The notes below the pieces were generated by a model. That model saw only the letters and a program-made list of their open reading frames with translations, was not told where the DNA came from and searched no databases. From positions 1-34,691 of the IMG/VR virus record IMGVR_UViG_3300028048_000053: DNA of 34,691 nucleotides; one strand, 5' to 3'. The stretch comes from a virus. A program made the translations under genes and the position numbers. Shown one piece after another: positions 50-19,282 of this stretch (the stretch's first letter is position 1; every line of letters begins with the position of its first letter).

Positions 50-78
50 TTGACATTTCCCGGGCGGTGTGCTATACT
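50..78 (+). promoter_or_regulatory. class I (early) sigma-A-type promoter TTGACA-N17-TGcTATACT; spacer contains CCCGGGCG
   Basis: -35 TTGACA 50-55, extended -10 TGcTATACT 70-78. Confidence 0.7.
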
Positions 79-126
79 ATAATCAGAAAGAGGGAAGAAA
101 CCCTAAAAGAAAAGGAGAGAGTAACA

Positions 127-336
127 ATGAAAAACCATTATGAAGGCAGAGAAATCGCAAGAGCGGTCCACGGTTGGACGATTGAAGAAGAAATTCAATG
201 GGAGATTGACCAATTGGAAACCGAAATCGATGACCACGAATGGTATTGCGACAACAAAGGTATTCCTTATGATGATGCGGAAGAAAAGGCAAGGCTTGCC
301 GAGCTTCGCAAAGAGCTTAAAGAAATCAGAGGATAA
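127..336 (+). CDS. hypothetical small acidic protein (69 aa)
   Basis: AAGGAGA SD 8-9 nt upstream of ATG 127; in frame with ORF 67..336; followed by hairpin terminator. Confidence 0.7.
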   Translation: MKNHYEGREIARAVHGWTIEEEIQWEIDQLETEIDDHEWYCDNKGIPYDDAEEKARLAELRKELKEIRG

Positions 337-352
337 AACCTCTGATTTCTTT
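327..352 (+). terminator. intrinsic terminator CAGAGG-loop-CCTCTG + ATTTCTTT
   Basis: perfect 6-bp stem then T-rich tract. Confidence 0.6.
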
Positions 353-362
353 AAAAAAGTGC

Positions 363-391
363 TTGACAATGCCCGGGCGATGTGCTACAAT
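363..391 (+). promoter_or_regulatory. class I promoter TTGACA-N17-TACAAT, CCCGGGCG in spacer
   Basis: -35 363-368, -10 386-391. Confidence 0.7.
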
Positions 392-401
392 ATAGACAGT
401 T

Positions 402-421
402 AAGGGAGCTGATAAACCCTT
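402..421 (+). promoter_or_regulatory. 5'-UTR hairpin family 1 (stem AAGGG/CCCTT, invariant loop AGCTGATAAA) upstream of SD
   Basis: same element at 1243-1260, 3380-3397, 4928-4947 with compensatory stem changes. Confidence 0.6.
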
Positions 422-444
422 GAAAACAGAGAAAGAGAGAGACC

Positions 445-570
445 ATGAGCATTGAGTATTACGAGATTATGAGCGACAATCTGAGCGACCTGCAGGACTG
501 GGCCGAATATGAGGCCGATATGGCTACCGACCCGTTCCAAGATGCGAACTGGGCCGACCGCATGGAGTGA
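445..570 (+). CDS. hypothetical small acidic protein (41 aa)
   Basis: ATG 445 after conserved leader; stop TGA 568-570; tandem terminators follow; shorter than ORF-track cutoff. Confidence 0.55.
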   Translation: MSIEYYEIMSDNLSDLQDWAEYEADMATDPFQDANWADRME

Positions 571-576
571 AGAGAG

Positions 577-645
577 AGAGGGGGGAAGCAATCCCCCCTC
601 TTTTACTGGCCCGCGCGTTGTCAGGTGCAACGCGCGGATTTTTGC
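577..645 (+). terminator. tandem terminator hairpins (GAGGGGGG..CCCCCCTC + CGCGCGTTG..CAACGCGCG) each followed by T-tract
   Basis: two GC-rich perfect stems followed by TTTT. Confidence 0.6.
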
Positions 646-720
646 TTGCAAGTGGGGTTTCGTGAATTTTTATACAAAAAAAATGAATAAAAATTTATGA
701 AAAAATTTTCACAAAACCCC

Positions 721-749
721 TTGACAAATCGCCCGGGCTATGGTATACT
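721..749 (+). promoter_or_regulatory. class I promoter TTGACA-N17-TGgTATACT, GCCCGGGC in spacer
   Basis: -35 721-726, -10 744-749. Confidence 0.7.
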
Positions 750-795
750 GTAGACAATGAAGGGGGCGAGACCCCCGAGAAAAGGAGTGCCAACT

Positions 796-1080
796 ATGAA
801 TATCCCTTATCATCTGACCATCCGCTCTAATGACCCCGACTGCCCGCAGACCATATGGTGGTTTGAGCAGGACGACTGCCACACCCTGGCCGAGGCCGAA
901 ATGGATGCCCTGGAAGAGGCCCTATATGTCCTCTGGGAGCTCGAACCTGTAGGCCGCGCTCCTGAGTGGATGCGTGAGTTGCGCAAGGTGGGCTGCACCA
1001 ACTTCCGCTACTGCCAGGAAGAGTTTGACGTGGTGCGCTGGGTGGGCGACCTGACCTACGAGGTCATGCTGAGCAGCTGA
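796..1080 (+). CDS. hypothetical protein (94 aa)
   Basis: AAAAGGAG SD then ATG 796, in frame with ORF 757..1080; terminator hairpins 1083-1146. Confidence 0.7.
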   Translation: MNIPYHLTIRSNDPDCPQTIWWFEQDDCHTLAEAEMDALEEALYVLWELEPVGRAPEWMRELRKVGCTNFRYCQEEFDVVRWVGDLTYEVMLSS

Positions 1081-1150
1081 GAGGAGGGGGGCTTCGGCCC
1101 CTCTTTTTTTGGCCCGCGCGCCACCGGGCCTGGCGCGCGGTTTTTGCATT

Positions 1151-1169
1151 ATTGTGCAGTTTGCACAAT
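1151..1169. repeat. perfect palindrome ATTGTGCAgtTTGCACAAT (operator-like) upstream of promoter; second copy at 6701-6719
   Basis: seen directly; both copies sit between a terminator and a TTGACTTTTTCC -35. Confidence 0.6.
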
Positions 1170-1201
1170 TTCAATCACAATTTTTTGTGCAATATGACAT
1201 A

Positions 1202-1230
1202 TTGACTTTTTCCCGTATCCGTGTTATACT
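1202..1230 (+). promoter_or_regulatory. class I promoter TTGACT-N17-TGtTATACT
   Basis: -35 1202-1207, -10 1225-1230. Confidence 0.65.
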
Positions 1231-1242
1231 GTAGACAGTTAA

Positions 1243-1260
1243 GGAGAGCTGATAAACTCC
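1243..1260 (+). promoter_or_regulatory. 5'-UTR hairpin family 1 (stem GGAG/CTCC, loop AGCTGATAAA)
   Basis: covaries with copy at 402-421. Confidence 0.6.
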
Positions 1261-1286
1261 GCAAACAGAGAAAGGGAGAACTTACC

Positions 1287-1490
1287 ATGTGGTATCAGAT
1301 TTGTATTTGTGGCAACGGATATGATGATTATGATGGAAGCGGTTGCGCTTTCTTTGAGAACCACGACAAAGAGACCGCATATAAGGCTTATGAGGTCGCA
1401 AAAGCCCTCTGCACCCTATATCCCGATACTTGGATTGAGTTTCGTGAGGACGGGAGGCTCATTGAGGAGTATAACACCTTTGCCGACTAA
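1287..1490 (+). CDS. hypothetical Cys-containing protein (67 aa)
   Basis: ATG 1287 after family-1 leader and GGGAGA SD; in frame with ORF 1221..1490. Confidence 0.7.
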   Translation: MWYQICICGNGYDDYDGSGCAFFENHDKETAYKAYEVAKALCTLYPDTWIEFREDGRLIEEYNTFAD

Positions 1491-1706
1491 ATCATTGACA
1501 TTTTAAAAGGAGGGGCTTCAGCCCCTCTTTTTTACTGACCCGCGCGTTGTCAGGTGCAACGCGCGGATTTCGCTTTAGCCAGGAGGAATAAGAATTTTTA
1601 TATAAAAAAATCACGTCTTTATGCGAGCTATTATATTCCTAATACTTGCTATTGGTAAAAATTTTTGTTATAATAAATATAGAAAAGCTGGAAAGTGGTG
1701 TTACTG

Positions 1707-2000
1707 ATGCGAGTGATAAAAAAGATAGATGATTTGGGCCGTGTGGCTATTCCAAAAGACATCAGAAAAGCAATGGGATTATTTAGTGGGGATGAAATCG
1801 AACTATTGTTCCAGGAGGAAGAAAAGCAGTTGATTATAAAGCCCTACGTATCAAACTATGCGAAACAGATTACAAAATTAAAAGAGGAAATTGCGGCCGC
1901 TCGGTCAGAGGCCGGTTTAACTGGTGTTGAGGATGTGCTAGACCTACTGGCGCAGGCCGAGGGAAAGCTGACTTCCATCGAATCAGATTTGCAAAAATAA
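1707..2000 (+). CDS. AbrB/SpoVT (swapped-hairpin) family transcriptional regulator-like protein (97 aa)
   Basis: N-terminus MRVIKKIDDLGRVAIPKDIRKAMGL matches the AbrB/MazE N-domain pattern; AT-rich TTGCTA-N17-TATAAT promoter upstream; paralog at 16794. Confidence 0.7.
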   Translation: MRVIKKIDDLGRVAIPKDIRKAMGLFSGDEIELLFQEEEKQLIIKPYVSNYAKQITKLKEEIAAARSEAGLTGVEDVLDLLAQAEGKLTSIESDLQK

Positions 2001-2052
2001 AAAATTTTTTGTATAATAATATTAGAAAAAATGAATAAAGGAAGTTTGTTCG

Positions 2053-2169
2053 ATGACCGTGGAATTAGTAAAAGCTCTTTTATTAATTGCTAAAGTTTGC
2101 ATGTCCTCTCCCAACTGTGAACAGTGCAAAATAAAAGACTTCTGTGGTAAGATGCCTTCTCAATGGTAA
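2053..2169 (+). CDS. possible small Cys-rich peptide (38 aa)
   Basis: AAGGAAG SD 8 nt before ATG 2053; 4 Cys; stop TAA 2167-2169; terminator 2238-2272 downstream; below ORF-track cutoff. Confidence 0.35.
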   Translation: MTVELVKALLLIAKVCMSSPNCEQCKIKDFCGKMPSQW

Positions 2170-2345
2170 GATTTGAGGGTGTTCGACACCGGCCGCGATG
2201 CGGTCGAATTTCACGGGAACAAACGTTCTGGAGTTTTTGTTTTTGAAGACCGGCCGCAGAAGCCGGTCTTTTTTTATCCCGAAACCCTTGACATTTATAT
2301 AAAAGTATGCTATACTATAGTCAAGCAACAAGGGGGCCGCAATTA

Positions 2346-2498
2346 ATGCATACTTATAGAATTTATTTCACTTTTGATTTTGAAAAAGTTACCCATAGCG
2401 TCGAGACTGGCAAGAACGCCCATGAAGCTATCGCCAAATTACAAGAGCGTTTTCCAAAACTTAAAAAAGTTTATTGTTACGAAGAAGAAAATGCTTGA
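2346..2498 (+). CDS. hypothetical protein (50 aa)
   Basis: class I promoter 2288-2316, SD AAGGGGGC, ATG 2346 in frame with ORF 2307..2498; next promoter overlaps stop. Confidence 0.6.
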   Translation: MHTYRIYFTFDFEKVTHSVETGKNAHEAIAKLQERFPKLKKVYCYEEENA

Positions 2499-2559
2499 CA
2501 ACAAGCACAAGATGTGCTATACTACAATCAGAAAGAAAAAAGAAAAGGAGATAATAAAA

Positions 2560-2733
2560 ATGATGACTGTTCGTGAAATGATGGAGTTTCTGTCCCGCTG
2601 TGATGGTGACGACTATGTTCTGCCCCGTTCCGGTTTTGACGAAGAAACTTTTGAGACTGAGCTGGCTGTTCAGGTGGTTGCCCGTGATGGCTCCGGCGTC
2701 ATAGATGGCGTCTACTGGACCGAAGAAGATTAA
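2560..2733 (+). CDS. hypothetical acidic protein (57 aa)
   Basis: AAAAGGAGA SD then ATG 2560; in frame with ORF 2374..2733. Confidence 0.65.
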   Translation: MMTVREMMEFLSRCDGDDYVLPRSGFDEETFETELAVQVVARDGSGVIDGVYWTEED

Positions 2734-2736
2734 AGA

Positions 2737-2766
2737 ATGGGGGAAGAAATTTCCCCATTTTTTTTT
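2737..2766 (+). terminator. intrinsic terminator ATGGGGGAAG..CTTCCCCAT + T9
   Basis: perfect hairpin plus T-tract. Confidence 0.7.
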
Positions 2767-2775
2767 AAAAAAAGC

Positions 2776-2804
2776 TTGACAAATAGCCCGGGGTATGCTA
2801 TAGT
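2776..2804 (+). promoter_or_regulatory. class I promoter TTGACA-N17-TGcTATAGT, GCCCGGGG in spacer
   Basis: -35 2776-2781; -10 2799-2804. Confidence 0.65.
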
Positions 2805-2838
2805 ATAATCAGAAAGCAAGAGAAAAGGAGATACGAAA

Positions 2839-3024
2839 ATGAGCGAGCTGAGAGAAAAACTGATTGACCGCATGATTCGGATTTACGGCTTTGAGAATAA
2901 AATCGTGATTGACTTCTGCCGATGCTGTGAGACTTTTCCGAATGATGAAGCACATGACAAAACCCTGCGGACGCTGGTAATGGTCCACGAAGAGTGTCCC
3001 GTAATTGAGGAGGAGGATGAGTAA
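2839..3024 (+). CDS. hypothetical Cys-containing protein (61 aa)
   Basis: ORF track; AAAAGGAGA SD; hairpin terminators 3005-3085. Confidence 0.7.
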   Translation: MSELREKLIDRMIRIYGFENKIVIDFCRCCETFPNDEAHDKTLRTLVMVHEECPVIEEEDE

Positions 3025-3212
3025 TCCTCCTCATTTTTTGCATAATTATGCGGCCGCGCGCCACCGGCCCTAGCGCGCGGTTTTTGCATAAATATTCACT
3101 TTTCAGCAATTTTTTGTATAAATATTCATTGTAACACTTTGTAACCATTTTCCCAAAAAACTGTAACTATTTTGTTATTGACTTCTGGCTTACTTTGTGC
3201 TATACTTTAATC

Positions 3213-3315
3213 AAGGTTGAGGGGCGAAAACAAGATAACAACAGGGACTTGTAACTGCCCGATAAAGAAAAGATAGAAAAGGACTTTTCCAGCTATCCCC
3301 GCCCCTCAAAAAACT
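3213..3315 (+). ncRNA. candidate sRNA: promoter (TTGACT 3178-3183, TATACT 3201-3206) to structured ~100-nt transcript with no ORF
   Basis: long-range pairing GAGGGGCG(3218)...CGCCCCTC(3298); no start codon or SD. Confidence 0.35.
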
Positions 3316-3379
3316 TGAAAAAAATGAAAAAAAGGCTTGACAAACTCAAAAAGGTATGCTATAATAAGAGCGTAATCAA

Positions 3380-3397
3380 GGAGAGCTGATAAACTCC
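3380..3397 (+). promoter_or_regulatory. 5'-UTR hairpin family 1 (GGAG/CTCC, loop AGCTGATAAA)
   Basis: identical to 1243-1260 element. Confidence 0.6.
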
Positions 3398-3421
3398 ACA
3401 AACAGAGAAAAGGAGAAAATT

Positions 3422-3631
3422 ATGAAGATGCGTGCTACTACTAAGGCGGCTATTCAGGCCCTTATCGACAACAAGGCTGAGGTCTACCGCTGGACTGATG
3501 CCGAGGGATGGAGCGTCATCAACACCCCGGCATATGGCGTGTCCATGAGCACTCTGCGCAAGTACGCCACCTATGACAAGCGGCCCTATGGTGAGGGCGA
3601 GATGCTGACCGTCACGGGGTGGAGGGAGTAA
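3422..3631 (+). CDS. hypothetical protein (69 aa), paralog of 4972-5181
   Basis: ORF track; about 70 percent identity to the 4972 product (MKMRATTKAAIQALIDNK.. versus MKMKITTKKAIQTLIDNK..). Confidence 0.75.
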   Translation: MKMRATTKAAIQALIDNKAEVYRWTDAEGWSVINTPAYGVSMSTLRKYATYDKRPYGEGEMLTVTGWRE

Positions 3632-3886
3632 TCTTTCCACCATATATAGAGGCCATTCCCACTAAGCGAGAAGCCGTGGCCAGGAGGAAATAACGAAAAG
3701 GGATAAATACTCCAAAATGTCAACTTCTCATAGGAGGGGGGCTCTTGCCCCTCTCCTTTTCTACTCACCCTCGCGCTTTCTGACGCCAGCGCGAGGAGTT
3801 TAGATTTATATATAGATTACACAATTTTTACCCTATTTTTTTGTGCATATTGTCTACTTGATTTTTTCCTGCATCTATGCTATACT

Positions 3887-3995
3887 TTAATCATCAAGGG
3901 GCGGTGACGCTGACCGGCGGGAAGCAGATACCAAGGTAGCTACAAAGGAAAACAGAAACACGGCTTGTGAAGACACACCGACAAAATTTTTTGGA
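3887..3995 (+). ncRNA. candidate sRNA cassette (promoter TTGATT 3858-3863 / TATACT 3881-3886, no ORF)
   Basis: promoter consensus then ~100 nt lacking an ORF, ending in a hairpin plus T6. Confidence 0.3.
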
Positions 3996-4047
3996 GAAAT
4001 TCAAAAAACCCCTTGACAAACCCATGAAAGTGTGCTATAATAAAGGC

Positions 4048-4373
4048 ACAAGGTCAAGAGGGGAACCGAACAGGACGAAGTAAGGCACCGCGGATGACCC
4101 GAAAAGCGACGAGAGGTTGATAAAAGCTTGATACCCTCTTGACTGTCCACTTAAATAGCACTTCAACTATCAGGCAGACGGAGGTGTCGGAAAGATGTTT
4201 ACGAGCGGATTTCTGTAGCAACTGAATAAGCTGTAGAAAAACGTAAATGTAGGAACGGAGGCAGCTTCTAATGTATTGGTCTGGATTTGTGTAGCTACAA
4301 TTAAATGATGTGTTTTCGATAGGCCGGGACGATGCTTGCGCCCCGGCCTATCGCCCGGGCAAAAAACTTTTTT
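4048..4373 (+). ncRNA. candidate ~300-nt non-coding transcript (promoter TTGACA 4013-4018 / TATAAT 4036-4041) ending in a 12-bp perfect hairpin terminator (4310-4347) + GCCCGGGC + T-tract
   Basis: no ORF with SD on + strand; the minus-strand ORF 4170..4694 spans promoters and terminators and is judged spurious. Confidence 0.35.
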
Positions 4374-4445
4374 CAAAATACTATTGACAAGCTCGGAATA
4401 ATCTGCTATACTGTATTCAGAAAGAAACGAAAGGGGAATTTCAAA

Positions 4446-4637
4446 ATGTACACACTGAGTATTTACACCTATGAAATCAGCGACTATAACCGCCTTGACC
4501 TGTATATCAGCGGTTGCGAAGCGGCCTATGCCGCTTTCCGTAAGGCTTGCGAGCTTGCCGACCTCACGGGCGCTTTCGTGAGCCTGTGGGATAACGACAC
4601 GGGCGAGGTCGTTGCGGACAATGGGGAGGATGAGTAA
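4446..4637 (+). CDS. hypothetical protein (63 aa)
   Basis: class I promoter 4384-4415; ATG 4446 in frame with ORF 4332..4637; terminators follow. Confidence 0.7.
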   Translation: MYTLSIYTYEISDYNRLDLYISGCEAAYAAFRKACELADLTGAFVSLWDNDTGEVVADNGEDE

Positions 4638-4680
4638 TCCTCCCCATTGTCTACTGGCCCGAGCGCCCACGGCCCAGGCG

Positions 4681-4733
4681 CTCGGTTTTTGCATAAATAT
4701 TCAGTTTTGGGTGAATTTTTGCATAAATATTCA
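4681..4733. repeat. GCATAAATATTCA direct repeats flanking a 12-bp inverted repeat (TTTTGGGTGAAT / ATTCACCCAAAA)
   Basis: GCATAAATATTCA-like copies also at ~3070, 3107, 5520, 5554, 5583. Confidence 0.6.
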
Positions 4734-4801
4734 CCCAAAAATTTTTCAACTTTTTTCACAAAACCTATTGACATTTCAGAAAAACCTGCTATAATAGGTA
4801 G

Positions 4802-4880
4802 TGTCAAGGGGAGAAGAAAACAACCTCTCACAGGCGCGTAACCTGTTGTAAGTAAAATAAAATCTCTCATAAAAATGTAA
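4802..4880 (+). ncRNA. candidate short transcript from promoter TTGACA 4768-4773 / TATAAT 4790-4795 with no ORF
   Basis: hairpin ACAGG-cgcgtaa-CCTGT; no SD or ATG. Confidence 0.25.
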
Positions 4881-4927
4881 AAAACCCCTTGACAATTCCC
4901 CGTAAGTGTGTTATACTTAAACCATCA

Positions 4928-4947
4928 AAGGGAGCTGATAAACCCTT
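4928..4947 (+). promoter_or_regulatory. 5'-UTR hairpin family 1 (AAGGG/CCCTT, loop AGCTGATAAA)
   Basis: identical to 402-421 element. Confidence 0.6.
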
Positions 4948-4971
4948 GAAAACAGAGAAAAGGAGAACGCT

Positions 4972-5181
4972 ATGAAAATGAAGATTACGACTAAAAAGGC
5001 TATCCAGACCCTCATTGACAACAAGACCCCCATTTTCCGCTGGACTGATGCGGACGGGTGGAGCGTCATTGATACCGCCGCATATGGCGTGTCCATGAAA
5101 ACTCTGCGCAAATATGCCACCTATACCAAAACCCCCTGCGAGGGCGGCGAGATGCTGACCGTCATCGGGTGGAAAGAGTAA
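4972..5181 (+). CDS. hypothetical protein (69 aa), paralog of 3422-3631
   Basis: ORF track; family-1 leader; AAAAGGAGA SD. Confidence 0.75.
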   Translation: MKMKITTKKAIQTLIDNKTPIFRWTDADGWSVIDTAAYGVSMKTLRKYATYTKTPCEGGEMLTVIGWKE

Positions 5182-5215
5182 TCCGCCCTCACATATGAAA
5201 GGAGATATATTCGAT

Positions 5216-5419
5216 ATGGAAAACAGCAGAAAGAATACCTACAAGGGAGCTTCCATTTGCACCATCCTCACTATCCTCTTCGTCATCCTCAAACTGACCG
5301 GCGTGATTGCCTGGCCCTGGTTCTGGGTGCTGTTCCCGCTGATTCTTGACCTCGGCCTCGCCCTCATCATTCTGATCGTCATCATGGTCGTCAAGATTAT
5401 CGCCTTGAAACGCAACTGA
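5216..5419 (+). CDS. small membrane protein, 2 predicted TM helices (67 aa)
   Basis: GAAAGGAGA SD; ATG 5216 in frame with ORF 5195..5419; hydrophobic core ICTILTILFVILKLTGVIAWPWFWVLFPLILDLGLALIILIVIMVV. Confidence 0.65.
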   Translation: MENSRKNTYKGASICTILTILFVILKLTGVIAWPWFWVLFPLILDLGLALIILIVIMVVKIIALKRN

Positions 5420-5463
5420 CTACAATTTGAGAGGGGCTTTTGCCCCTCTCCTTTTCTTGCTTC

Positions 5464-6050
5464 AGCACTTTAACGATTTAAAGCGCTGAAGTTCAGCCGG
5501 GCGCCCGCGGTCCAAGCGCCCGGCTTTTGCATAAATATTCAGTTTTCAATGAATTTTTGCATAAATATACATACATTTTCTGCATAAATATTTTCACAAA
5601 ACCTCTTGACAGATTGCACGGGCTATGCTATAATACAATCAGAAAGCAAGAGAAAAGGAGGTAAAAAACATGAAATACTTTATTCACACCTATGACTGGA
5701 ATTTTGATACGATGGAACGGAAGCATGAAGTTAAAGAAATTAACCATCAAGAGCTTGCGGAACTTGTGCAATACCAAGAGGAAACCGCCTTTGACTACAA
5801 GTGGAATGAATTGAAACTTATCAAAATGACTGATACGGAAATGCACTTCGTGCTTAACAAGAAAACCAAATTAAATTATTAATCTTAAAAAAAGGTAAAA
5901 GAGGGGGATTGCTCCCCCTCTCTTTTTAAGGCAAACACTTTAACGATTTAAAGTGCTGAAGTTCAACCGGGCGCTTTCCCACGCAGCGCCCGGTTTTTCA
6001 ATTTAAATGGTTAAAGCGTAATTTTTGCCGCACTTTAACCATTTAAAGTG
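5464..6050. repeat. three copies of palindrome GCACTTTAA-N4-TTAAAGTGC (5464-5489, 5937-5955, 6031-6050)
   Basis: seen directly; each follows a gene terminator. Confidence 0.6.
5670..5882 (+). CDS. hypothetical protein (70 aa)
   Basis: class I promoter 5608-5640; AAAAGGAGG SD; ORF track. Confidence 0.7.
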   Translation: MKYFIHTYDWNFDTMERKHEVKEINHQELAELVQYQEETAFDYKWNELKLIKMTDTEMHFVLNKKTKLNY

Positions 6051-6138
6051 CTAAATCGCTAAATCCCAAAACATAAGTTCTGCTTATACCTGGATTGAAG
6101 TATTAGTACAGCGAATAGATAAAAATTTCAAAAAAGGC

Positions 6139-6167: not shown

Positions 6168-6198
6168 CTAATCAAGATAAGACAAGGGGGAAACACCA

Positions 6199-12145: not shown

Positions 12146-12179
12146 GTCTACAGAAACCAAGAGAAAAGGAGATACCAAA

Positions 12180-13134: not shown

Positions 13135-13215
13135 AATAATTGTCAAGGGGCTGTAAACCGCGGGGCATCCAAATAAGTCCTGTACTGCGTGGTAAGAAAT
13201 TTCAAAAAGTTTTTT
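13135..13215 (+). ncRNA. candidate sRNA or leader between promoter (TTGCTT 13100-13105 / TATAAT 13123-13128) and tRNA-Lys
   Basis: no ORF; AT hairpin TTTCAAAAA-g-TTTTTGAAA at the 3' end. Confidence 0.3.
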
Positions 13216-13239
13216 TTTGAAAATCCCCTTGACAAACTT

Positions 13240-13314
13240 GCGGCCATGGTGTAATTGGTAACACAGTAGACTTTTAATCTATCATTCGGGGTTCAAGTCC
13301 CCGTGGTCGCACCA
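13240..13314 (+). tRNA. tRNA-Lys (anticodon UUU), CCA encoded
   Basis: manual cloverleaf: acceptor GCGGCCA/TGGTCGC, D stem GTGT/ACAC, anticodon stem GTAGA/TCTAT with loop CTTTTAA, T stem CGGGG/CCCCG with loop TTCAAGT. Confidence 0.8.
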
Positions 13315-13495
13315 ATTCCTTTCCTTTTTATTATCTCTCTCTTTCTTACAAAGAACCCTGCTAAAGCGATTTAGTGGGGTTTCTTTGTAGAATCGCCCGG
13401 GCGACTGGCAAAATGCACAAAACAATTTCTAAAATTCTATCTCATTTTGTGCATTTTGCCTATTGTAATCTGTGCGCCCTTGTGCTATACTATAA

Positions 13496-13600
13496 TCGTT
13501 CCAAGGGGGAAGGCAAACAGCGTTAGGACACTTCTTCAAAGGGGGAAGGCAAACAGTGACAGGGCACTTCCCCCCTCGGACGCCGAAAAAAATTCCAAAA
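13496..13600 (+). ncRNA. two tandem copies of the CCAAGGGGGAAGGCAAACAG sRNA-like motif from promoter TTGCCT 13455-13460 / TATACT 13478-13483
   Basis: sequence family shared with 9092-9170. Confidence 0.3.
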
Positions 13601-13713
13601 AACTCTTGACAAGCCGCTTTGAGTGTGCTATAATAATGGTGTCAATGAGGGAAGCCCCTCTTGAACATAAAAAAAATATGGGTAGCGACCTACCGCTAAA
13701 GGAGTTGTGTACT

Positions 13714-14100
13714 ATGACTAACACCAAGATGACCTACAGCAAGGCTATTGCCGCCTGTATCGACCTGCTGACCACTGGCGAGACTTCTGAGAATCCCACC
13801 GAAATCGTGGAGAAGCTGACCGCCCTCTCCGAGAGCCTTGCGAAGAAGTCTGGGGCTGAGCGCAAGCCGACTGCGACCCAGGTTGCCAACGAGGGCTATA
13901 AGGCGGAGATTCTCGCCTATCTGCGTGATGTGGCCGAGCCTAAGACTGTGGGCGACATTCTCAAGGAAGTCCCCGCCGTGGCTGGTTTCTCCACTCCCAA
14001 GGTATCTGCCCTCATGAAGCAGTTGGTTGACGAGGGTAACGGCCCCGTCGAGCGTCTGACCGACAAGCGGCGCACCTACTTCCGCATCAAGGCGGAGTAA
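13714..14100 (+). CDS. winged-helix-like DNA-binding protein (128 aa), paralog of 9327-9695
   Basis: family-2 leader; ATG 13714 in frame with ORF 13447..14100. Confidence 0.7.
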   Translation: MTNTKMTYSKAIAACIDLLTTGETSENPTEIVEKLTALSESLAKKSGAERKPTATQVANEGYKAEILAYLRDVAEPKTVGDILKEVPAVAGFSTPKVSALMKQLVDEGNGPVERLTDKRRTYFRIKAE

Positions 14101-14240
14101 GCCCCCTGCGCCCATCCCCTCCCCTGCAATAGTGGGGGAGGGGCGCGCCCGGGCGAAAAAAATTTTTTTTAAAAACCCCTTGACAAACCTCTATAAATGT
14201 GCTATACTTTAGATGTTCCAAGAGGAAAGGAGAGAGTGTA

Positions 14241-14480
14241 ATGGAAAAGAAGTTTAACATGGTAGTGACCCTTACCAATGGTAAAGTCCTGCGCCACTAC
14301 GGACTTTCCTTGCGCATGGCGGCAACTATGAAATTGCACTATCAAGAGAAGTACCCTAACACCCTTGAAGAAATCGAAACCGTTTACGCAGGGACGAACA
14401 AAAGAGCTACGGCGCTTTGCTATTTCATTGAAGATGGAGAAAACGATCCTATCGCTTTCTATGAGCGTTACGGCTGGTAA
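14241..14480 (+). CDS. hypothetical protein (79 aa)
   Basis: class I promoter 14183-14215; AAAGGAGAG SD; in frame with ORF 14199..14480. Confidence 0.7.
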   Translation: MEKKFNMVVTLTNGKVLRHYGLSLRMAATMKLHYQEKYPNTLEEIETVYAGTNKRATALCYFIEDGENDPIAFYERYGW

Positions 14481-14494
14481 AAGGAGGAAATAAA

Positions 14495-14740
14495 ATGGCT
14501 ATTTCTATTAAGCGTGAAAAGAACGAGCGCGGCGTGACGGTCGGCTCTCTCAAAGTGGGCGACACTTTCATGTATGACAACCGTATCGGCGTTATCGTTG
14601 ACCGCAATGGTCACTGTTTTCCCATGGATTTTGCAACCTGTGCCACCTTTCACAAACATCCCTGGACATCCGAAGCACTTCTTCCGCAGGAGATTGTTCT
14701 GCCTATCGAGGTCGAAATGACTTGCAAGGTCGTGGGCTAA
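14495..14740 (+). CDS. hypothetical protein (81 aa)
   Basis: AAAGGAGGA SD then ATG 14495; ORF track. Confidence 0.75.
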   Translation: MAISIKREKNERGVTVGSLKVGDTFMYDNRIGVIVDRNGHCFPMDFATCATFHKHPWTSEALLPQEIVLPIEVEMTCKVVG

Positions 14741-14857
14741 GCCTTTCCCCGCTTCGGCGGGGAAATCGCCCGGGCAAAAAACTTTTTTCAAAAACCTATT
14801 GACATTTTCCTAAGTATGTGCTATACTATAATCACAAAAGGAAAGGAGATAATCAAA

Positions 14858-15130
14858 ATGACCTATTCCATCCAGATTTATCGCATGAATGCTGGCTCTT
14901 GGGAAACCTTTGTTCAGTTTACCCCCGTCGTCTTTGACGAAATGATCGAAGCTGGCAAGGCTATGTTCGTCAATCCTCTACTGTCTGCGGAGAATGTTGC
15001 TATCGTTGATGACACAACTGGCGAAGTTCTCTGGGATGCCTGTTCCGATGATGAGGACTGTGAGCCTGCGGACATTGATGATGATTGCGGCTTTGACCCC
15101 TACGAGGGCTGTTTCACCTACGACTGCTGA
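14858..15130 (+). CDS. hypothetical acidic, Cys-containing protein (90 aa)
   Basis: AAAGGAGA SD; ATG 14858 in frame with ORF 14816..15130. Confidence 0.7.
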   Translation: MTYSIQIYRMNAGSWETFVQFTPVVFDEMIEAGKAMFVNPLLSAENVAIVDDTTGEVLWDACSDDEDCEPADIDDDCGFDPYEGCFTYDC

Positions 15131-15244
15131 CCCCCTACAAGGGGGTCAGTTTGCCCGGGCGAAAAAATTTTTAAAAAGGTCTTGACAAACTCTCAGTAAT
15201 GTGTTATACTGTATTCAGAAATCAAAGGAAAGAGGGAATAAACC

Positions 15245-15457
15245 ATGGTGTGTCCTAAGTGCGGCCCTGGGGCAGCTGTAATGTCCGATGAGTGTATTGA
15301 TGTTGAGGAGTACGACGATGATAACATTGCCGTAACCTACGAGGGGACTTGTCTGTGGTGCAAACGCAAATACCAATGGACGGAAATCTATAAATATAGC
15401 CGTATCAAAAATATTATTGAAATTGGTACAGCTCCGCAGGAGGAAGAAGAGAACTAA
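15245..15457 (+). CDS. Zn-ribbon protein (CPKCG...CLWCK), 70 aa
   Basis: ORF track; class I promoter 15185-15215. Confidence 0.7.
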   Translation: MVCPKCGPGAAVMSDECIDVEEYDDDNIAVTYEGTCLWCKRKYQWTEIYKYSRIKNIIEIGTAPQEEEEN

Positions 15458-15589
15458 CCCCCCTCTTTTTCTTCCCCCTGCGCCCGGGCGCAAAAATTTT
15501 TTTTCAAAACCCCCTTGACAACCCTCCAAGAGTGTGTTATAATAAAGGCACATTGAGGGTGGTGGCCTAACACCAAAGGAGAATTTGTT

Positions 15590-16195
15590 ATGAACAAGAG
15601 TGACTTTTTCGAGCGTGAAATCCAGTTCATTGAGGACATTGACCTCCAAGACTTTGTTCGCTTTTTCTTCAATGAAAGATGCGGCGACTGGTTTTGGAAG
15701 TCTGGGGCTTCCAGTTCTGGGAAATATCATCCCCAGTTCACCAAGGGCGAGGGTGGACTTGTGCGCCATACTAAAGCCGTTGTGTGGGTCTGTGAGGAAC
15801 TTCTGCGCATGAGTTCCTACGCCTACATGAAAGACATTTACAAGGACTACGCAAGGGTCGCCTGCCTGCTTCACGATACACGCAAGTATGGCGGCGGGGA
15901 TGAAGAGGATAAAAGTTATTATCCACGTCATGGTGAAGCCGCCGCAAATGATGTTGGTGTGGCGTGGCGAGAGTTTTTCCACTGTCATTCCTGCCCCGAA
16001 TTGCTTTTGATGGCTATTCACTCCCACATGGGACAGTGGACGGAAAACAGAGAGGACAGACCCTTTACCAACATTGACCGCCTGGTACATCTGTCGGACT
16101 ACATCGCAAGCCGTCCTTTCTGGGACATTCCCGACATTACCACCGAATACAACGAAGCCAATGCAAAGATGATTGAAGATTCTCTGCCTTTCTAA
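15590..16195 (+). CDS. HD-domain phosphohydrolase (201 aa)
   Basis: H..H...LLHDTRKYG...H motif arrangement typical of the HD superfamily; family-2 leader; ORF track. Confidence 0.6.
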   Translation: MNKSDFFEREIQFIEDIDLQDFVRFFFNERCGDWFWKSGASSSGKYHPQFTKGEGGLVRHTKAVVWVCEELLRMSSYAYMKDIYKDYARVACLLHDTRKYGGGDEEDKSYYPRHGEAAANDVGVAWREFFHCHSCPELLLMAIHSHMGQWTENREDRPFTNIDRLVHLSDYIASRPFWDIPDITTEYNEANAKMIEDSLPF

Positions 16196-16286
16196 TCCCC
16201 CTCCCCTCTGTCCCAGTGACAGAGGGGAAATCGCCCGGGCGAAAATTTCCTCTTGACAAGAGGCCAAAAGTATGCTATACTGTATT

Positions 16287-16400
16287 TACAATTCACGGAG
16301 AAATCCGTTTTACATACCTGCGGACTGCCGAACAGGCTTTTTCCAAAATTTCTCATGGGCCTGCATAGGATAACATGACTTTCTGCGGGAATTTTTGAAA
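16287..16400 (+). ncRNA. candidate sRNA cassette (promoter TTGACA 16255-16260 / TATACT 16278-16283; no ORF)
   Basis: only very short ORFs; hairpins CGGAGAAATCCG and CCTGCGGACTGCCGAACAGG. Confidence 0.25.
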
Positions 16401-16466
16401 ATAATACTTGACAAACAAGCACAAGTATGTTATAATAAAGGCACAAAAAGGAAAGGAGATAATAAA

Positions 16467-16694
16467 ATGCTCGATCACATTGGCGGCATCCCCGATGGAC
16501 ACATTGTAGAGTTTCCGCACTCTGCGCGCACTTTCATGAAGGTCTGCACAAGAGATGGGCAGGGCGGAGTTGTTGACATCACTACAGGTGAGCTGATTAT
16601 GATAAGCGACCTGCCGCGATACGGTATTGATGTATGGTGCTCTGAGCACTACGGAGAAAGGGCTACTATTCAGTACGAAGTAGAGGACGATTGA
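16467..16694 (+). CDS. hypothetical protein (75 aa)
   Basis: AAAGGAGA SD; ATG 16467 in frame with ORF 16395..16694. Confidence 0.7.
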   Translation: MLDHIGGIPDGHIVEFPHSARTFMKVCTRDGQGGVVDITTGELIMISDLPRYGIDVWCSEHYGERATIQYEVEDD

Positions 16695-16793
16695 CCGTCC
16701 TCTTGGCCCGGGCGAAAAATTTTTTTAAAAACCTCTTGACAAGTGATTAGCTTTGTGCTATAATGAAGTCACAAAAGGAAAGGAGATACAAAA

Positions 16794-17075
16794 ATGAGAG
16801 CAACAGGTATTGTAAGACGCATTGATGACTTCGGCAGAGTTGTCATTCCGAGGGAAATTCGCAAAACTCTCAACATTCGCGAGGGCGACCCCCTCGAATT
16901 CTTCACCGACCCCGACGAGAGGGCTGTGTGCTTCAAGCCCTATCTGCCCTACTCCGAGCCGTGGCGTATGCTCGAAGATGCCGCAGAGACCATGCGTGAC
17001 AGCGAGGACTTTCACGAGTTCGCCGCCGATGTTTACGCCCTTGCGCGTAAGATTCGGAAATCTGCGCAGGGCTGA
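16794..17075 (+). CDS. AbrB/SpoVT/MazE-like regulator (93 aa), paralog of 1707-2000
   Basis: MRATGIVRRIDDFGRVVIPREIRKTLNIREGDPLEF matches the swapped-hairpin pattern. Confidence 0.7.
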   Translation: MRATGIVRRIDDFGRVVIPREIRKTLNIREGDPLEFFTDPDERAVCFKPYLPYSEPWRMLEDAAETMRDSEDFHEFAADVYALARKIRKSAQG

Positions 17076-17216
17076 TAAATACCCCCGCCTTGGCGGGGGA
17101 AATCGCCCGGGCGCAAAAGTTTTTTCAAAAAGGGCGTTGACAAAGGTATAATCTTGTGCTATAATATCAATGTAAACAAAAGGGTTGCGACCTAACGCAA
17201 GAAAGGAATTGATACT

Positions 17217-17510
17217 ATGAATTTCTGGATTGTTATTTTGACCATCTACATTTTCTTTACTATTACCCTGTTCTTTGTGTCTGCCGCTCAGGCGTTCGAA
17301 GTTCGGCGGCGTATCTACGCAAAAGTTGGTAAGAATTACTATGACTCTTTTTCCAAGCGAAGCATTGTTGAAAAAATTGTTAAACTTTTAACCAGCTTTT
17401 TCTTGTCTGCCATTCCTATTCTTAACTTTTTTGTAACTTTTCATGTGATTATTCATGCTGAGGAATTAGTAAATAGTAGTGTGCAGAAATGGCTTGCAGA
17501 ACATAAATAA
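17217..17510 (+). CDS. membrane protein (97 aa)
   Basis: family-2 leader; ORF track; two long hydrophobic segments. Confidence 0.65.
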   Translation: MNFWIVILTIYIFFTITLFFVSAAQAFEVRRRIYAKVGKNYYDSFSKRSIVEKIVKLLTSFFLSAIPILNFFVTFHVIIHAEELVNSSVQKWLAEHK

Positions 17511-17643
17511 GGGTAAGGGGGCTTAATGTCCCCTGCTGCCCGGGCGCTAAAAAAATCAAAAAAAGGTATTGACAAGCGGCGCAATCTGTGCTATACTATA
17601 CACAGTTAAGGGGTGGCGGCCAAACGCTAAAGGAGATAAAAAA

Positions 17644-17808
17644 ATGTTTTACGAACTGAGAGATGCGATTTTCAATCGTCTTGCCTGCTGGCTGATGAAG
17701 CACTGTCACTGTTGGTCGATGGTGTTCTATACCGCCTGCCGCAGATACTACCCTGCCAATGTAAAATGTATGTATGAATCATGGGCTGAGGAAATGGGGG
17801 TGAAGTGA
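17644..17808 (+). CDS. small Cys/His-rich protein (54 aa)
   Basis: family-2 leader + AAAGGAGA SD; in frame with ORF 17569..17808. Confidence 0.6.
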   Translation: MFYELRDAIFNRLACWLMKHCHCWSMVFYTACRRYYPANVKCMYESWAEEMGVK

Positions 17809-18023
17809 TGTTCAGAGTTTGGTTTGATGATTTGGAAGTAGCCATTGCGGCGTTCCGCAAGGTCGTGATGGACGAACTGTTCGTTTCTATTAGCGGCAAT
17901 CTCTACGGCGATTTCATTTTTGAGATTTCCGAGGGTATCAAGTACACCGTGAAGCACAACGATTTCAGCGTGTGGCGCAATTTCGGGGATTGGAGAAAAC
18001 CCGATTGGAGGGAAATCAAGTAA
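17808..18023 (+). CDS. hypothetical protein (71 aa), translationally coupled (TGATG)
   Basis: ORF track 17805..18023. Confidence 0.6.
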   Translation: MFRVWFDDLEVAIAAFRKVVMDELFVSISGNLYGDFIFEISEGIKYTVKHNDFSVWRNFGDWRKPDWREIK

Positions 18024-18145
18024 TGCCATCCCTCTATTATACCTATTCTCATTGCTCGTTGTCGCCGCTTCAATTTATTATCGCATTTGCTATTGGTGCG
18101 GCGATTGGTGCGGGAATTATTTTCTACTTTACGAATAAAGGGTGA
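18023..18145 (+). CDS. possible single-TM peptide (40 aa), coupled via TAATG
   Basis: ATG overlaps the upstream stop; hydrophobic FIIAFAIGAAIGAGIIFYF; ends inside a 24-bp palindrome terminator. Confidence 0.35.
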   Translation: MPSLYYTYSHCSLSPLQFIIAFAIGAAIGAGIIFYFTNKG

Positions 18146-18161
18146 ATAATTATTCACCCTT
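18138..18161. repeat. perfect 24-bp palindrome AAGGGTGAATAATTATTCACCCTT
   Basis: seen directly; shorter GAATAATTATTC copy at 10234-10245. Confidence 0.7.
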
Positions 18162-18256
18162 TATTCATTGCCCGGGCGCAAAAATTTTTTTTCAAAAACC
18201 CCTTGACAAGTTGCTGTAAATGTGCTATACTACATTCAGAAAGTGAGGGATGCAAG

Positions 18257-18433
18257 ATGCGTGATTTTAAATGGACTGACGAACTGTGGTGCGTTGTAAA
18301 AAACGATGGTAGCTTTGCGGGTGCTCCCTGTCTGAGTTGGGAGGAGGCGCGAGAACTTCAGGCGCAGTACGAAAACAGTCAAATGTATCTGTTGAAACCT
18401 GTCGGATGGATTTCTAAGGAGGATAAAAAATGA
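18257..18433 (+). CDS. hypothetical protein (58 aa)
   Basis: class I promoter 18208-18237; in frame with ORF 18203..18433. Confidence 0.6.
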   Translation: MRDFKWTDELWCVVKNDGSFAGAPCLSWEEARELQAQYENSQMYLLKPVGWISKEDKK

Positions 18434-18789
18434 AGCTGACTAAAAAGTTTTTCTGCCCTGTGAACGGATGGGACTGCCCTTACTGGAAAGAGGACGGTTT
18501 CTGCTCCATGGTCGATAATGGGGATGACCCCGTTATGGAGTGCGACGATGCCGCCACTTTCTGGGAACCCGACGAGGATTACTTCGTGTGGGCTGACGAG
18601 GACGGCGCAACCTACGATGTGGAATGGCTCTTGGAGCTTGGCTATCACTTCGTCAATGGTGAGCCTGTGAAAGCTCCCTCTTCCGACTTCATCAAGGCGA
18701 CTTTGGAAAAAGTTCTCGAACATTGGGATGAAGAGGTCAGTTTTCCTCCCGACTTTGATGAAATGGGGTCAAATGGGTTTAGGGGGTAA
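18430..18789 (+). CDS. hypothetical acidic Cys-containing protein (119 aa)
   Basis: GGAGGATAAAAAATG; ORF track; terminator 18790-18825. Confidence 0.75.
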   Translation: MKLTKKFFCPVNGWDCPYWKEDGFCSMVDNGDDPVMECDDAATFWEPDEDYFVWADEDGATYDVEWLLELGYHFVNGEPVKAPSSDFIKATLEKVLEHWDEEVSFPPDFDEMGSNGFRG

Positions 18790-19282
18790 ATAAGAGGGGG
18801 GTAAATGCCCCCTCTACTTTCGCCCGGGCAACTGGCTTCAAGGCTTTAAATGACTAAAGTGAACCGGCCGCTGACAGGGGCAGCGAGCCGAACTCTCGCC
18901 CAAACACACCATATGCAAATTTTTTGCTCAATCTAGCAGGTCTTAGACCGCCCGGGCATTTTCCCGAAACATGCGGGGAGGAGCGCAGCGACTCCCATAT
19001 GGCCCGCCTAACGGTTGAAAGTGAGGGGCACCCACCCAGCAAAAACTTTCTCGCTGCGCGAGAAACCGGCCTCTGGGGCCGTTTTTTAGCCCCTTGCGGG
19101 CTTGATTTTTATAAAAAATTATGTTATAATATAAAAAAACGGCTGCTTTTTACCAAAATTTACCATTTTTTGTTGTTTTTTATAAAAAAATATGTTATAA
19201 TGTAAAAAAAAGACTAAAAATGGGCGGCCCCAAGGGCCGTTTTCTCTTTTTTCGCCAAAATTTCAGAGCATTATATCGGAGT

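Follow-up and report, generated by a model that had tools for sequence, protein, structure and literature searches.

An 8-bp perfect palindrome, GCCCGGGC, recurs at nearly all junctions between small early gene cassettes in the first 19 kb of IMG/VR virus record IMGVR_UViG_3300028048_000053 and, judging from its sequence context and conservation, is very probably a protein recognition site on double-stranded DNA. The window (the whole stretch of DNA that was analyzed, 34,691 bp) corresponds to the leading 34.7 kb of a metagenomic contig of 171,985 bp from an uncultivated phage; together with the following 9 kb (locus L144), ∼44 kb of the 172 kb was covered. The octamer was detected 26 times in the window, whereas 100 dinucleotide-preserving shuffles contained on average 0.37 copies and at most 2, and it was the top-ranked 8-mer of the whole window, above every A/T run. 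All 29 CCCGGG hexamers were located at or before position 18,951, and neither GCCCGGGC nor CCCGGG was found in positions 19,000 to 34,691 (15.7 kb) or in the 9 kb of source contig that follow the window.

The distribution of the octamer between coding and intergenic sequence was determined from a gene map that combined promoters, ribosome-binding sites, and open reading frames (ORFs). In the first 19 kb, which has a GC content of 40 to 51% across the octamer region, no copies were present in coding sequence (11.6 kb called) compared with 26 in intergenic sequence (7.4 kb). By our arithmetic, the probability of an all-intergenic placement by chance is (7421/19000)^26, or ∼2e-11. The sole seeming exception, the copy at 7292, lies within a questionable GTG ORF overlapping a terminator. 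A test for CCCGGG depletion on six-frame long ORFs was discarded as invalid because such ORFs cross the junctions. These counts bore out an initial annotation of this DNA, in which the octamer was described as recurring more than 20 times and as being excluded from coding sequence. The 21 posthairpin coordinates given there were all real, with offsets of 13 nt or less, while the copies at 8079 and 18950 had been overlooked. Five copies had also been placed in promoter spacers: those of promoters 363, 721, and 6139 were exact (371, 731, and 6149), while those of promoters 50 and 2776 were one-mismatch variants (58 and 2786), and a sixth spacer variant, GCACGGGC at 5616 (promoter 5606), was absent from that annotation.

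The promoters of the array, between 50 and 18,231, are all on the plus strand and have an extended −10 element, each being followed by one or two small genes and then by a GC-rich hairpin (Table 1). A typical junction has a stop codon followed in order by the GC-rich hairpin, the octamer, an A/T tract resembling an UP element, and a consensus sigma-A promoter. Twenty-one of the 26 octamers were situated 0 to 5 nt past a stable hairpin (folding free energy [dG], −7 to −26 kcal/mol), and the hairpin sequence differed from junction to junction. The spacing from the octamer to the −35 element was 29 to 33 nt at eleven junctions of the window and 20, 40, 42, 46, 54, 59, 68, or 102 nt elsewhere. After the hairpin, junctions of the common (29- to 33-nt) class have the form GGC-nn-AAAAtTTTTTT-n-AAAAA-ccta-TTGACA; the A/T tract of this class fits the UP-element consensus, with the octamer abutting the upstream edge of the tract at about −59 to −66. 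In other classes, TGCACAAA inverted repeats and the like were inserted between the octamer and the promoter and never between the hairpin and the octamer. The succession of hairpin, octamer, A-run, T-run, and −35 element that had initially been described as fixed was, hence, present at about half of the junctions, the others having spacings of 20, 40 to 68, or 102 nt with insertions.

Fewer than five T residues were present within the 8 nt following 43 of 44 octamer-adjacent hairpins; a comparison of T tracts between hairpins with and without an octamer is partly circular. These hairpins are not canonical intrinsic terminators, because the octamer takes the place of the U tract. The leftmost 6 kb is laid out otherwise, with canonical T-tract terminators and with the octamer or a one-mismatch variant in the promoter spacer. 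One family of T-tract terminators, CCGCGCG..CGCGCGG-TTTTTGCAT, was found at 609 to 640, 1112 to 1143, 1538 to 1570, 3050 to 3085, and 4657 to 4690; the 5′ flank of these terminators (GCCCGCGC or GCCCGAGC) is a one-mismatch octamer, and an exact octamer occupies the loop of a terminator of this type at position 809 of the related locus L014. Another hairpin, GTTAGC-N4-GCTAAC (GTTAGTnnnnACTAAC in relatives), which is located at 8979 to 8994 and 9742 to 9757 and in L018, L023, and L024, adjoins octamers; this dyad is conserved and recurs even in octamer-less lineages.

Related IMG/VR contigs (24 to 200 kb) were retrieved with two early proteins. In four of the retrieved loci, the octamer was the top 8-mer, with 9 to 20 copies per 20 kb, the same order of hairpin, octamer, and promoter, and several promoter-upstream classes; the genes flanking this layout in relatives had only 40 to 78% amino acid identity. 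A pooled set of 166 nonredundant copies from 17 loci was assembled. Sixteen of these copies were in promoter spacers, mostly 3 to 4 nt past the −35 element, and 127 of the 150 nonspacer copies had a stem ending 0 to 5 nt upstream. In a 239,565-bp contig detected by a pattern scan, 11 or more promoters contained a spacer octamer, in the form TTGACA-aatc-GCCCGGGC-n5-TATAAT. The fixed register relative to promoters proposed in the initial annotation was not sustained in the pooled set: octamer-to-(−35) spacing varied from 18 to 107 nt, no helical phasing to the −35 element was detected outside the 29- to 33-nt class, and the octamer is locked to the foot of the upstream hairpin.

The octamer region was strongly mosaic. 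Most early genes had no homologue in relatives, and those that were shared exhibited 26% to 91% identity and were partly reordered. Blocks of nucleotide similarity between relatives began and ended at octamers, as in positions 12,097 to 12,514 versus L016. A 220-amino-acid (aa) early protein (8273 to 8935) had 56 to 74% identity to proteins of octamer-less lineages and only 45 to 47% to those of the octamer-type loci L014 to L016, a pattern indicative of cassette exchange between lineages with different junction palindromes. Beyond these relatives, no DNA or protein match was found in 50,697 phage records, apart from the gene at 33250 to 33669. A 16-mer scan of viral contigs with the octamer plus the A-run yielded single chance matches only, and a scan of 185,579 species genomes with TTGACAAATYGCCCGGGC for a host regulon or prophage yielded single matches inside coding sequence, those in Clostridia being in a conserved coding motif. 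The motifs GCGGCCGC, GGCCGGCC, TGGCGCCA, and GCGCGCA were considered as switched specificities in relatives and were rejected, being coding or scattered. A literature search for the octamer returned cloning primers only, and no description of a palindrome-marked cassette system was found in the searchable literature.

The flanks of the octamer in the pooled set were dyad symmetric. A residues were almost never found at −1 and seldom at −2, the same was true of T at +1 and +2, and C was favored at −1 and G at +1. The information content was 2 bits within the octamer, ∼0.5 at ±1, and ∼0 beyond ±2. No consistent pairing partner for the octamer was detected in RNA folds, and the spacer octamers lie outside the transcript of the gene that they precede. 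The dyad-symmetric flanks, the steep drop in information, the lack of RNA pairing, and the untranscribed spacer copies argue for double-stranded DNA being read by a symmetric or orientation-indifferent reader, while the confinement of conservation to the octamer argues for selection on the site itself rather than for homogenization or copying of whole junctions.

Relatives without octamers had one different, invariant palindrome at each junction. TTAGACGT-N3-ACGTCTAA was present in 23 copies in L017 and 6 copies in L019, while L021 contained TTAGATGT-N3-ACATCTAA, in which both half-sites were altered together. The half-sites of TTAGACGT-N3-ACGTCTAA were invariant and the central triplet was free, with 14 triplets in the 23 copies of L017. 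Coaltered half-sites and alternative palindromes are a signature of a protein coevolving with its site. A scan of the collection detected TTAGACGT-type motifs in 80 viral DNA stretches (657 kb), with 433 sites in 52 multisite loci. These 52 loci contained a single octamer, and CCCGGG was underrepresented (12 observed versus 27.9 expected); the 25 octamer-type loci (385 kb) contained zero TTAGACGT sites. The octamer and TTAGACGT-type systems are alternatives, mutually exclusive over 385 kb and 476 kb. The 19-bp TTAGACGT-type site was phased to the −35 element (gaps of 9, 18 to 19, 28 to 29, and 38 to 39 nt) and replaced the UP-like tract in L017, L019, L021, and L194 to L273.

On present sequence evidence, the chances are about even that the octamer is read by the 148-aa protein encoded at 6199 to 6645, which is expressed from the spacer-octamer promoter at 6139. 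This protein had no Pfam, PHROG, or PDB sequence match, and its family comprises 145 clusters in the representative library. The predicted structure contained the alpha-beta-beta-beta-alpha-beta core of PD-(D/E)XK type II restriction endonucleases. Among 60 family sequences, D44 and K55 were the only invariant residues, E20 was E or Q, and the middle catalytic position was occupied by S (47 sequences) or Q (11 sequences) rather than D or E; Q occurs at this position in some active enzymes. Residues S43, D44, S/Q53, K55, and E/Q20 form an SD-X8-(S/Q)VK motif on beta2 and beta3 behind helix 1. This motif parallels the SD-X11-EAK motif of HhaI, in which the Asp opens beta2 and the Lys closes beta3 (PMC7026639). 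The protein is unlike HhaI, HinP1I, and MspI in size (148 aa versus 241 to 262 aa), in having Ser or Gln in place of the middle acidic residue, in having no partner methyltransferase found, and in having a presumed target that is enriched at the phage's own regulatory positions rather than avoided (PMC7026639).

The distribution of this protein family was compared with that of the site. Twelve loci were fetched solely for a 40 to 48% relative of the protein, and 10 of them contained octamers (2 to 9 copies), almost all downstream of the gene; the octamer was the top GC palindrome in eight of those loci, and the two octamer-less loci end ∼2 kb past the gene. A family profile matched in 21 loci with CCCGGG-core sites compared with 0 of 80 TTAGACGT-type loci (657 kb). 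Close family members were found in octamer loci only, with none in L017 or L019 to L022. In most relatives, the site core was present in the spacer of the gene's own promoter (CCCGGGCG, TCCGGGCG, AACCGGGCAT, ACCGGGCG, and GCCCGAGC). It was the combination of the fold and the site in its own promoter that singled out this protein.

Profile searches of ∼45 early proteins also detected an AbrB/SpoVT-like protein (16794 to 17075), winged-helix paralogs (9327 to 9695 and 13714 to 14100), an HD phosphohydrolase, and an NT5C-like protein. AbrB-like and winged-helix regulators had been the initial candidates for the reader, but these occur in all lineages, and the restriction-endonuclease-fold protein fits better. 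The AbrB-like protein was rejected as a close homologue of the SpoVT/AbrB N domain that is equally frequent in TTAGACGT-type lineages. The winged-helix paralogs were rejected because their subfamilies did not track site type and they are behind their own TGCACAAA-type inverted repeats. The family of the 61-aa protein at 2839 is short, acidic, and helical and is an unlikely DNA binder, while the 9854/12613 family had no informative profile match. The two members of the latter in the window (9854 to 10216 and 12613 to 13014) are paralogs of 120 to 133 aa with a basic central segment and weak matches to the Lsr2 dimerization domain only; members of this family were detected in L023, L024, and 15 octamer-type loci but in no TTAGACGT-type locus.

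The explanation of the whole that we favor, at about even probability, is that the octamer is the recognition site of a phage-encoded, highly sequence-specific protein, likeliest that of 6199 to 6645, which controls or insulates the cassettes. Once made, this protein would occupy the octamers. Spacer octamers would be operators at which the bound protein occludes RNA polymerase, including at the protein's own promoter and, hence, with autoregulation. At the junctions, protein bound between the base of the U-less hairpin and the outer edge of the UP element would form a "stoperator"-like block or boundary limiting polymerase read-through into the following cassette. The net effect would be a global, self-limiting shutdown or insulation of ∼30 to 40 very strong early promoters. 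The output is perhaps a transcription block rather than strand cleavage, for which we put the chances at even or slightly better. A further proposal, which we hold only tentatively and at less than even probability, is that a restriction-endonuclease-fold protein was recruited by a clade of large gut/rumen phages as the reader of an octamer located at all early-cassette junctions and in the protein's own promoter, acting either as a global, autoregulated "stoperator" block or as a junction nickase. In either role, an enzyme of restriction type would be acting on dozens of sites deliberately kept in the genome that encodes it, for which we know of no described precedent. The site statistics, anatomy, conservation, dyad symmetry, fold of the candidate, and co-occurrence are what the analysis showed; binding of the protein to the site and the effect of that binding are what we infer. 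The view in the initial annotation that the motif is a nonchance, protein-binding site with a global early role was strengthened by the dyad flanks, spacer copies, site-confined conservation, sister palindromes, and candidate reader; its other suggestion, a terminator or antiterminator module, does not agree with the absence of consistent RNA pairing, the occupied U-tract position, and the copies in promoter spacers.

Several observations weigh against the favored explanation. The association of the site core with the promoter of its own gene (13 of 22 promoter-like sites versus 26 of 630 others in the same loci; Fisher p = 5e-12) is inflated because L186 to L191 are near-identical and not independent. 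Distant relatives of the protein were matched in two loci with few or no octamers, L023 and L024, in which the CCCGGG core was nevertheless overrepresented (4 versus 0.45 expected and 3 versus 0.87 expected, respectively). Other families were equally exclusive to octamer lineages, namely, the HD phosphohydrolase (9 loci versus 0), the 2839 family (9 versus 0), and the 9854/12613 family (15 versus 0), and the co-occurrence of site and protein could, therefore, be a lineage effect. The invariant, catalytic-type Asp and Lys suggest an active nuclease and not a pure binder, and an active cutter with at least 26 sites of its own and no methyltransferase in view would self-destruct. A search for a partner methyltransferase in the proteins of the window, the genes listed for L144, and the largest ORFs in L182 to L193 detected none, with approximately a quarter of the genome covered. 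As the sister palindrome is phased to the −35 element and the octamer is linked to the hairpin, the two systems are not identical in mechanism and the analogy between them is one of position only. Finally, a roadblock at the octamer would be expected to stall polymerase before the hairpin clears the exit channel, which would make a simple cooperation of the two impossible.

An alternative that we consider unlikely is programmed nicking or cleavage, in which a catalytically active 6199 to 6645 protein would nick or cut the cassette junctions and so provide supercoil-releasing swivels, template-strand breaks ending transcripts after the U-less hairpins, or breaks seeding cassette shuffling or replication. 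The invariant D44 and K55, with E/Q20 and S/Q53 at catalytic positions, are consistent with such an activity, as is an all-or-none 8-bp specificity, which is typical of restriction enzymes. The closest structures are of monomeric enzymes that cut one strand per step and that turn into nickases once held to one orientation (PMC7026639). A palindrome, however, can be bound both ways, which would tend to double-strand cutting of the phage's own early region, and the sequence covered gave no sign of a methyltransferase or of any other protection. The bounding of similarity blocks by octamers (as at 12,097 to 12,514) is also in keeping with breakage, but mosaic breakpoints at junctions are expected under any cassette architecture, and nicking leaves unexplained the conserved offset within promoter spacers, including that of the protein's own promoter.

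It is likewise improbable that the octamer is read by a different regulator, encoded elsewhere in the 172-kb genome, carried by the virion, or supplied by the host, with the restriction-endonuclease-like gene being a member of the regulon, for example, a host-DNA nuclease. Further promoters with spacer sites (50, 363, 721, and 2776 in the window and 26 of 630 in relatives), the several families equally confined to octamer lineages, and the coverage of only 44 kb of the 172-kb contig favor such a regulator. It is disfavored by the lack of any other suitable DNA-reading fold among the ∼45 early proteins, the occurrence of AbrB-like and winged-helix families in every lineage, and the absence of a host regulon with a promoter-plus-site arrangement among the 185,579 species genomes; an invariant, GC-only palindrome of 8 bp also suits a restriction-enzyme fold.

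Two further explanations are highly improbable. The octamer could be a passive by-product, either a junction sequence homogenized by recombination or gene conversion among cassettes like the PeSL units of T4-type phages, in keeping with the PeSL-like architecture and strongly mosaic region (PMC2839356, PMC4122927), or a structural spacer (a GC clamp or an A-form-prone step beside a bent A/T tract), but only 8 to 10 bp are conserved while the adjoining hairpin and tract vary freely, the octamer is invariant across lineages diverged to ∼40 to 50% protein identity and is also present in a different context, the promoter spacer, and the fixed half-sites and free central 3 bp of the sister motif are beyond gene conversion. 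An action of the octamer in RNA, as part of a terminator or as a signal for 3′-end processing or stability, is opposed by the very stable RNA:DNA hybrid that a GC-only stretch past the hairpin would form (the opposite of intrinsic termination by its established mechanism), by the lack of a pairing partner or of an Rfam match for the octamer (only a tRNA passed), by palindromy and dyad flanks that are meaningless for a single RNA strand, and by spacer copies that are not in the transcript of the following gene.

The preferred reading of the octamer as a protein site can be set against known systems. As in the PeSL units, a GC-rich stem-loop, an AT tract, and a consensus early promoter (sigma-70 in T4-type phages) form one intergenic unit, small ORFans of hyperplastic regions are bordered by these units, and relatives swap cassettes at them (PMC2839356, PMC4122927). 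PeSLs have no invariant palindrome between the stem-loop and AT tract and no dedicated reader has been proposed; they occur in T4-like phages of Gram-negative hosts, unlike the Bacillota-type promoters and ribosome-binding sites observed here. A precedent for a site network is offered by Cluster A mycobacteriophages (L5 and Bxb1), with 20 to 30 sites, of which a few are promoter operators and most are intergenic "stoperators" where the repressor blocks elongation, with a lineage-specific consensus (PMC6550527). The octamer is similar in having tens of copies (26 here and 9 to 20 per 20 kb in relatives), a minority of them in promoters (3 exact and 3 variant spacer copies versus 21 posthairpin copies), and a distinct consensus in each lineage (GCCCGGGC versus TTAGACGT-N3-ACGTCTAA versus TTAGATGT-N3-ACATCTAA). 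Stoperators, however, are 13-bp, asymmetric, transcription-oriented, genome-wide sites in temperate phages, where a helix-turn-helix immunity repressor keeps lysogeny (PMC6550527), while the octamer is an 8-bp palindrome, restricted to the early region and coupled to hairpins, in a large, apparently lytic phage with a candidate reader of restriction-endonuclease fold.

The KorB-OB system of plasmid RK2 has a palindromic operator at many promoters, either 4 to 10 bp or 45 to >1,000 bp upstream, that is read by one global repressor (PMC11790492). One palindromic site is similarly reused at varied promoter distances here, but OB spans 16 bp and its reader, KorB, is a CTP-dependent sliding clamp of the ParB family that acts with KorA, whereas octamer conservation extends over 8 to 10 bp; no ParB-like domain was found among the scanned early proteins. 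The Noc site of Bacillus subtilis, ATTTCCCGGGAAAT, shares the CCCGGG core, many copies, and a spreading DNA-binding reader but has ATTT/AAAT flanks rather than G/C and a length of 14 to 16 bp, and no Noc protein was found here. The octamer sequence is that of the SrfI site (GCCC^GGGC) and contains the SmaI/XmaI site (CCCGGG), a likeness of sequence only. Integron attC sites have long, imperfect hairpins with R′/R″ core sites and bound promoterless cassettes that depend on an integrase; the junctions are unlike them in having short, perfect hairpins and a promoter for each cassette, and no integrase was found among the scanned proteins. The new element is the palindrome marking of the cassettes, which is not present in T4-type PeSLs; overall, the arrangement is a variant on known architectures.

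Table 1. Early-region features between positions 50 and 18,957 of the window
Feature	Position	Strand	Context
Early cassette array, ∼36 near-consensus sigma-A-type promoters	50..18231	+	TTGACA-17-TGcTATAcT; small gene(s) and hairpin each; houses all octamer copies
One-mismatch octamer TCCCGGGC	58..65	.	Spacer of promoter 50-78
GCCCGGGC	371..378	.	Spacer of promoter 363-391, 2 nt past −35
GCCCGGGC	731..738	.	Spacer of promoter 721-749, 4 nt past −35
One-mismatch octamer GCCCGGGG	2786..2793	.	Spacer of promoter 2776-2804
GCCCGGGC	4353..4360	.	Hairpin dG −23.1, 0 nt upstream; −35 at 4384
One-mismatch octamer GCACGGGC	5616..5623	.	Spacer of promoter 5606-5634
Promoter of candidate reader gene, TTGACA-AATTGCCCGGGCTATGG-TATACT	6139..6167	+	
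GCCCGGGC	6149..6156	.	Spacer of promoter 6139-6167, driving restriction-endonuclease-like gene
148-aa predicted PD-(D/E)XK-fold protein, best candidate reader	6199..6645	+	Motif SD44-X8-S53-V-K55; E20 in helix 1
GCCCGGGC	7292..7299	.	Hairpin dG −17.9, 0 nt upstream; −35 at 7322
GCCCGGGC	7757..7764	.	Hairpin dG −19.0, 0 nt upstream; −35 at 7786
GCCCGGGC	8079..8086	.	Inside larger T-tract terminator hairpin with one-mismatch TCCCGGGC at 8057; −35 at 8181
GCCCGGGC	9001..9008	.	GTTAGC..GCTAAC hairpin 4 nt upstream; then TGCACAAA inverted repeats, weak promoter near 9060
GCCCGGGC	9759..9766	.	Hairpin 1 nt upstream; −35 at 9801
GCCCGGGC	10702..10709	.	Hairpin dG −15.5, 1 nt upstream; −35 at 10756
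GCCCGGGC	11313..11320	.	Hairpin dG −15.7, 0 nt upstream; −35 at 11353
GCCCGGGC	12085..12092	.	Hairpin dG −14.9, 1 nt upstream; −35 at 12117; left edge of cassette 83% identical to L016
GCCCGGGC	12507..12514	.	Hairpin dG −15.9, 4 nt upstream; −35 at 12553; right edge of L016-shared cassette
GCCCGGGC	13049..13056	.	Hairpin dG −14.9, 0 nt upstream; then TGCACAAT inverted repeats, tRNA-Lys cassette
GCCCGGGC	13395..13402	.	Hairpin dG −22.4, 5 nt upstream; then TGCACAAA inverted repeats
GCCCGGGC	14147..14154	.	Hairpin dG −26.4, 0 nt upstream; −35 at 14180
GCCCGGGC	14768..14775	.	Hairpin dG −13.0, 4 nt upstream; −35 at 14799
GCCCGGGC	15153..15160	.	Hairpin dG −20.2, 2 nt upstream; −35 at 15182
GCCCGGGC	15482..15489	.	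Hairpin dG −19.1, 0 nt upstream; −35 at 15515
GCCCGGGC	16233..16240	.	Hairpin dG −20.2, 4 nt upstream; −35 at 16253
GCCCGGGC	16706..16713	.	Hairpin dG −12.5, 2 nt upstream; −35 at 16736
GCCCGGGC	17105..17112	.	Hairpin dG −14.4, 5 nt upstream; −35 at 17137
GCCCGGGC	17538..17545	.	Hairpin dG −13.7, 0 nt upstream; −35 at 17569
GCCCGGGC	18170..18177	.	Hairpin dG −19.6, 3 nt upstream; −35 at 18203
GCCCGGGC	18822..18829	.	Hairpin dG −17.8, 0 nt upstream; final array junction, no consensus promoter after
GCCCGGGC	18950..18957	.	Without strong hairpin; within conserved region closing array

A number of other features of the early region were observed. Inverted repeats of the form TGCACAAW ... WTTGTGCA bracket weak −35 promoters just past octamers at 9020 to 9049, 13067 to 13096, and 13414 to 13453 and are also present at 1151 to 1191 and 6701 to 6719. 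They were kept in L014 to L018, including L017, and are located upstream of the winged-helix paralogs and tRNA-Lys; these repeats probably make up another operator system, with the winged-helix family as its reader. The tRNA-Lys(UUU) gene (13240 to 13314) has its own early cassette with an octamer on either side. Consensus promoters with no ORF of >34 aa were found in the stretches 10790 to 11312, 3632 to 4352, 1491 to 1805, and 3206 to 3421. Positions 10692 to 10993 were 73% identical to 5333 to 5608 of L014, and the predicted transcripts from promoters 9060 and 10756 both start with ATAATTGTTCC. These ORF-poor, promoter-driven stretches may be noncoding RNAs. Between promoter and start codon, a 5′ leader motif, GGYGGYGRCCNAAC..AAAGGAG, was present at 15558 to 15570, 17612 to 17624, and 17183 to 17195 and in L014 and L015, while L040 and L083 had another repeated leader, CACAGGYTGAGGGAARCC.CAC..GGG.AGA.GAGGGGAGAGACTG, after spacer-octamer promoters.

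The N-terminal 55 to 73 residues of the 93-aa protein encoded at 16794 to 17075 closely match the SpoVT/AbrB DNA-binding domain (E = 2e-19 to 2w1t). This protein may be a mimic of a regulator of transition state or sporulation in the host, and it gives a hint that the host is a spore former of the Bacillota; the extended −10 promoters, AAAGGAG ribosome-binding sites, and SpoVT-like gene together point to a host in the Bacillota. The HD-domain phosphohydrolase (15590 to 16195) and the weakly matching NT5C-like 5′-deoxynucleotidase (6814 to 7266) may manipulate the nucleotide pool, and modified DNA is thus possible. Directly after the early array, between 20000 and 22000, the GC content falls sharply to 29% with a negative skew. 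Further downstream, a PDDEXK_5 endonuclease gene (33250 to 33669) is situated among tRNA genes. The sole DNA match to a known phage was between this gene and a hypothetical one in Enterococcus phage EFP01 (73.6% nucleotide identity), and the gene may be mobile or of the homing type.

The octamer grammar provides a simple, testable rule for early regions that are still "dark" in large phages without cultured representatives. Pairs of site and reader, combined with near-ideal UP-element promoters and compact terminators, could provide insulated expression cassettes for the engineering of Bacillota. If the 6199 to 6645 protein is the reader, then a nuclease fold would have been reused as a genome-wide controller of transcription or topology and would represent a compact, new module for recognition of 8 bp of DNA. 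The lineage-specific sites resemble immunity groups, and the site/reader pairs could be used to classify these phages and to predict cross-regulation or interference among coinfecting relatives.

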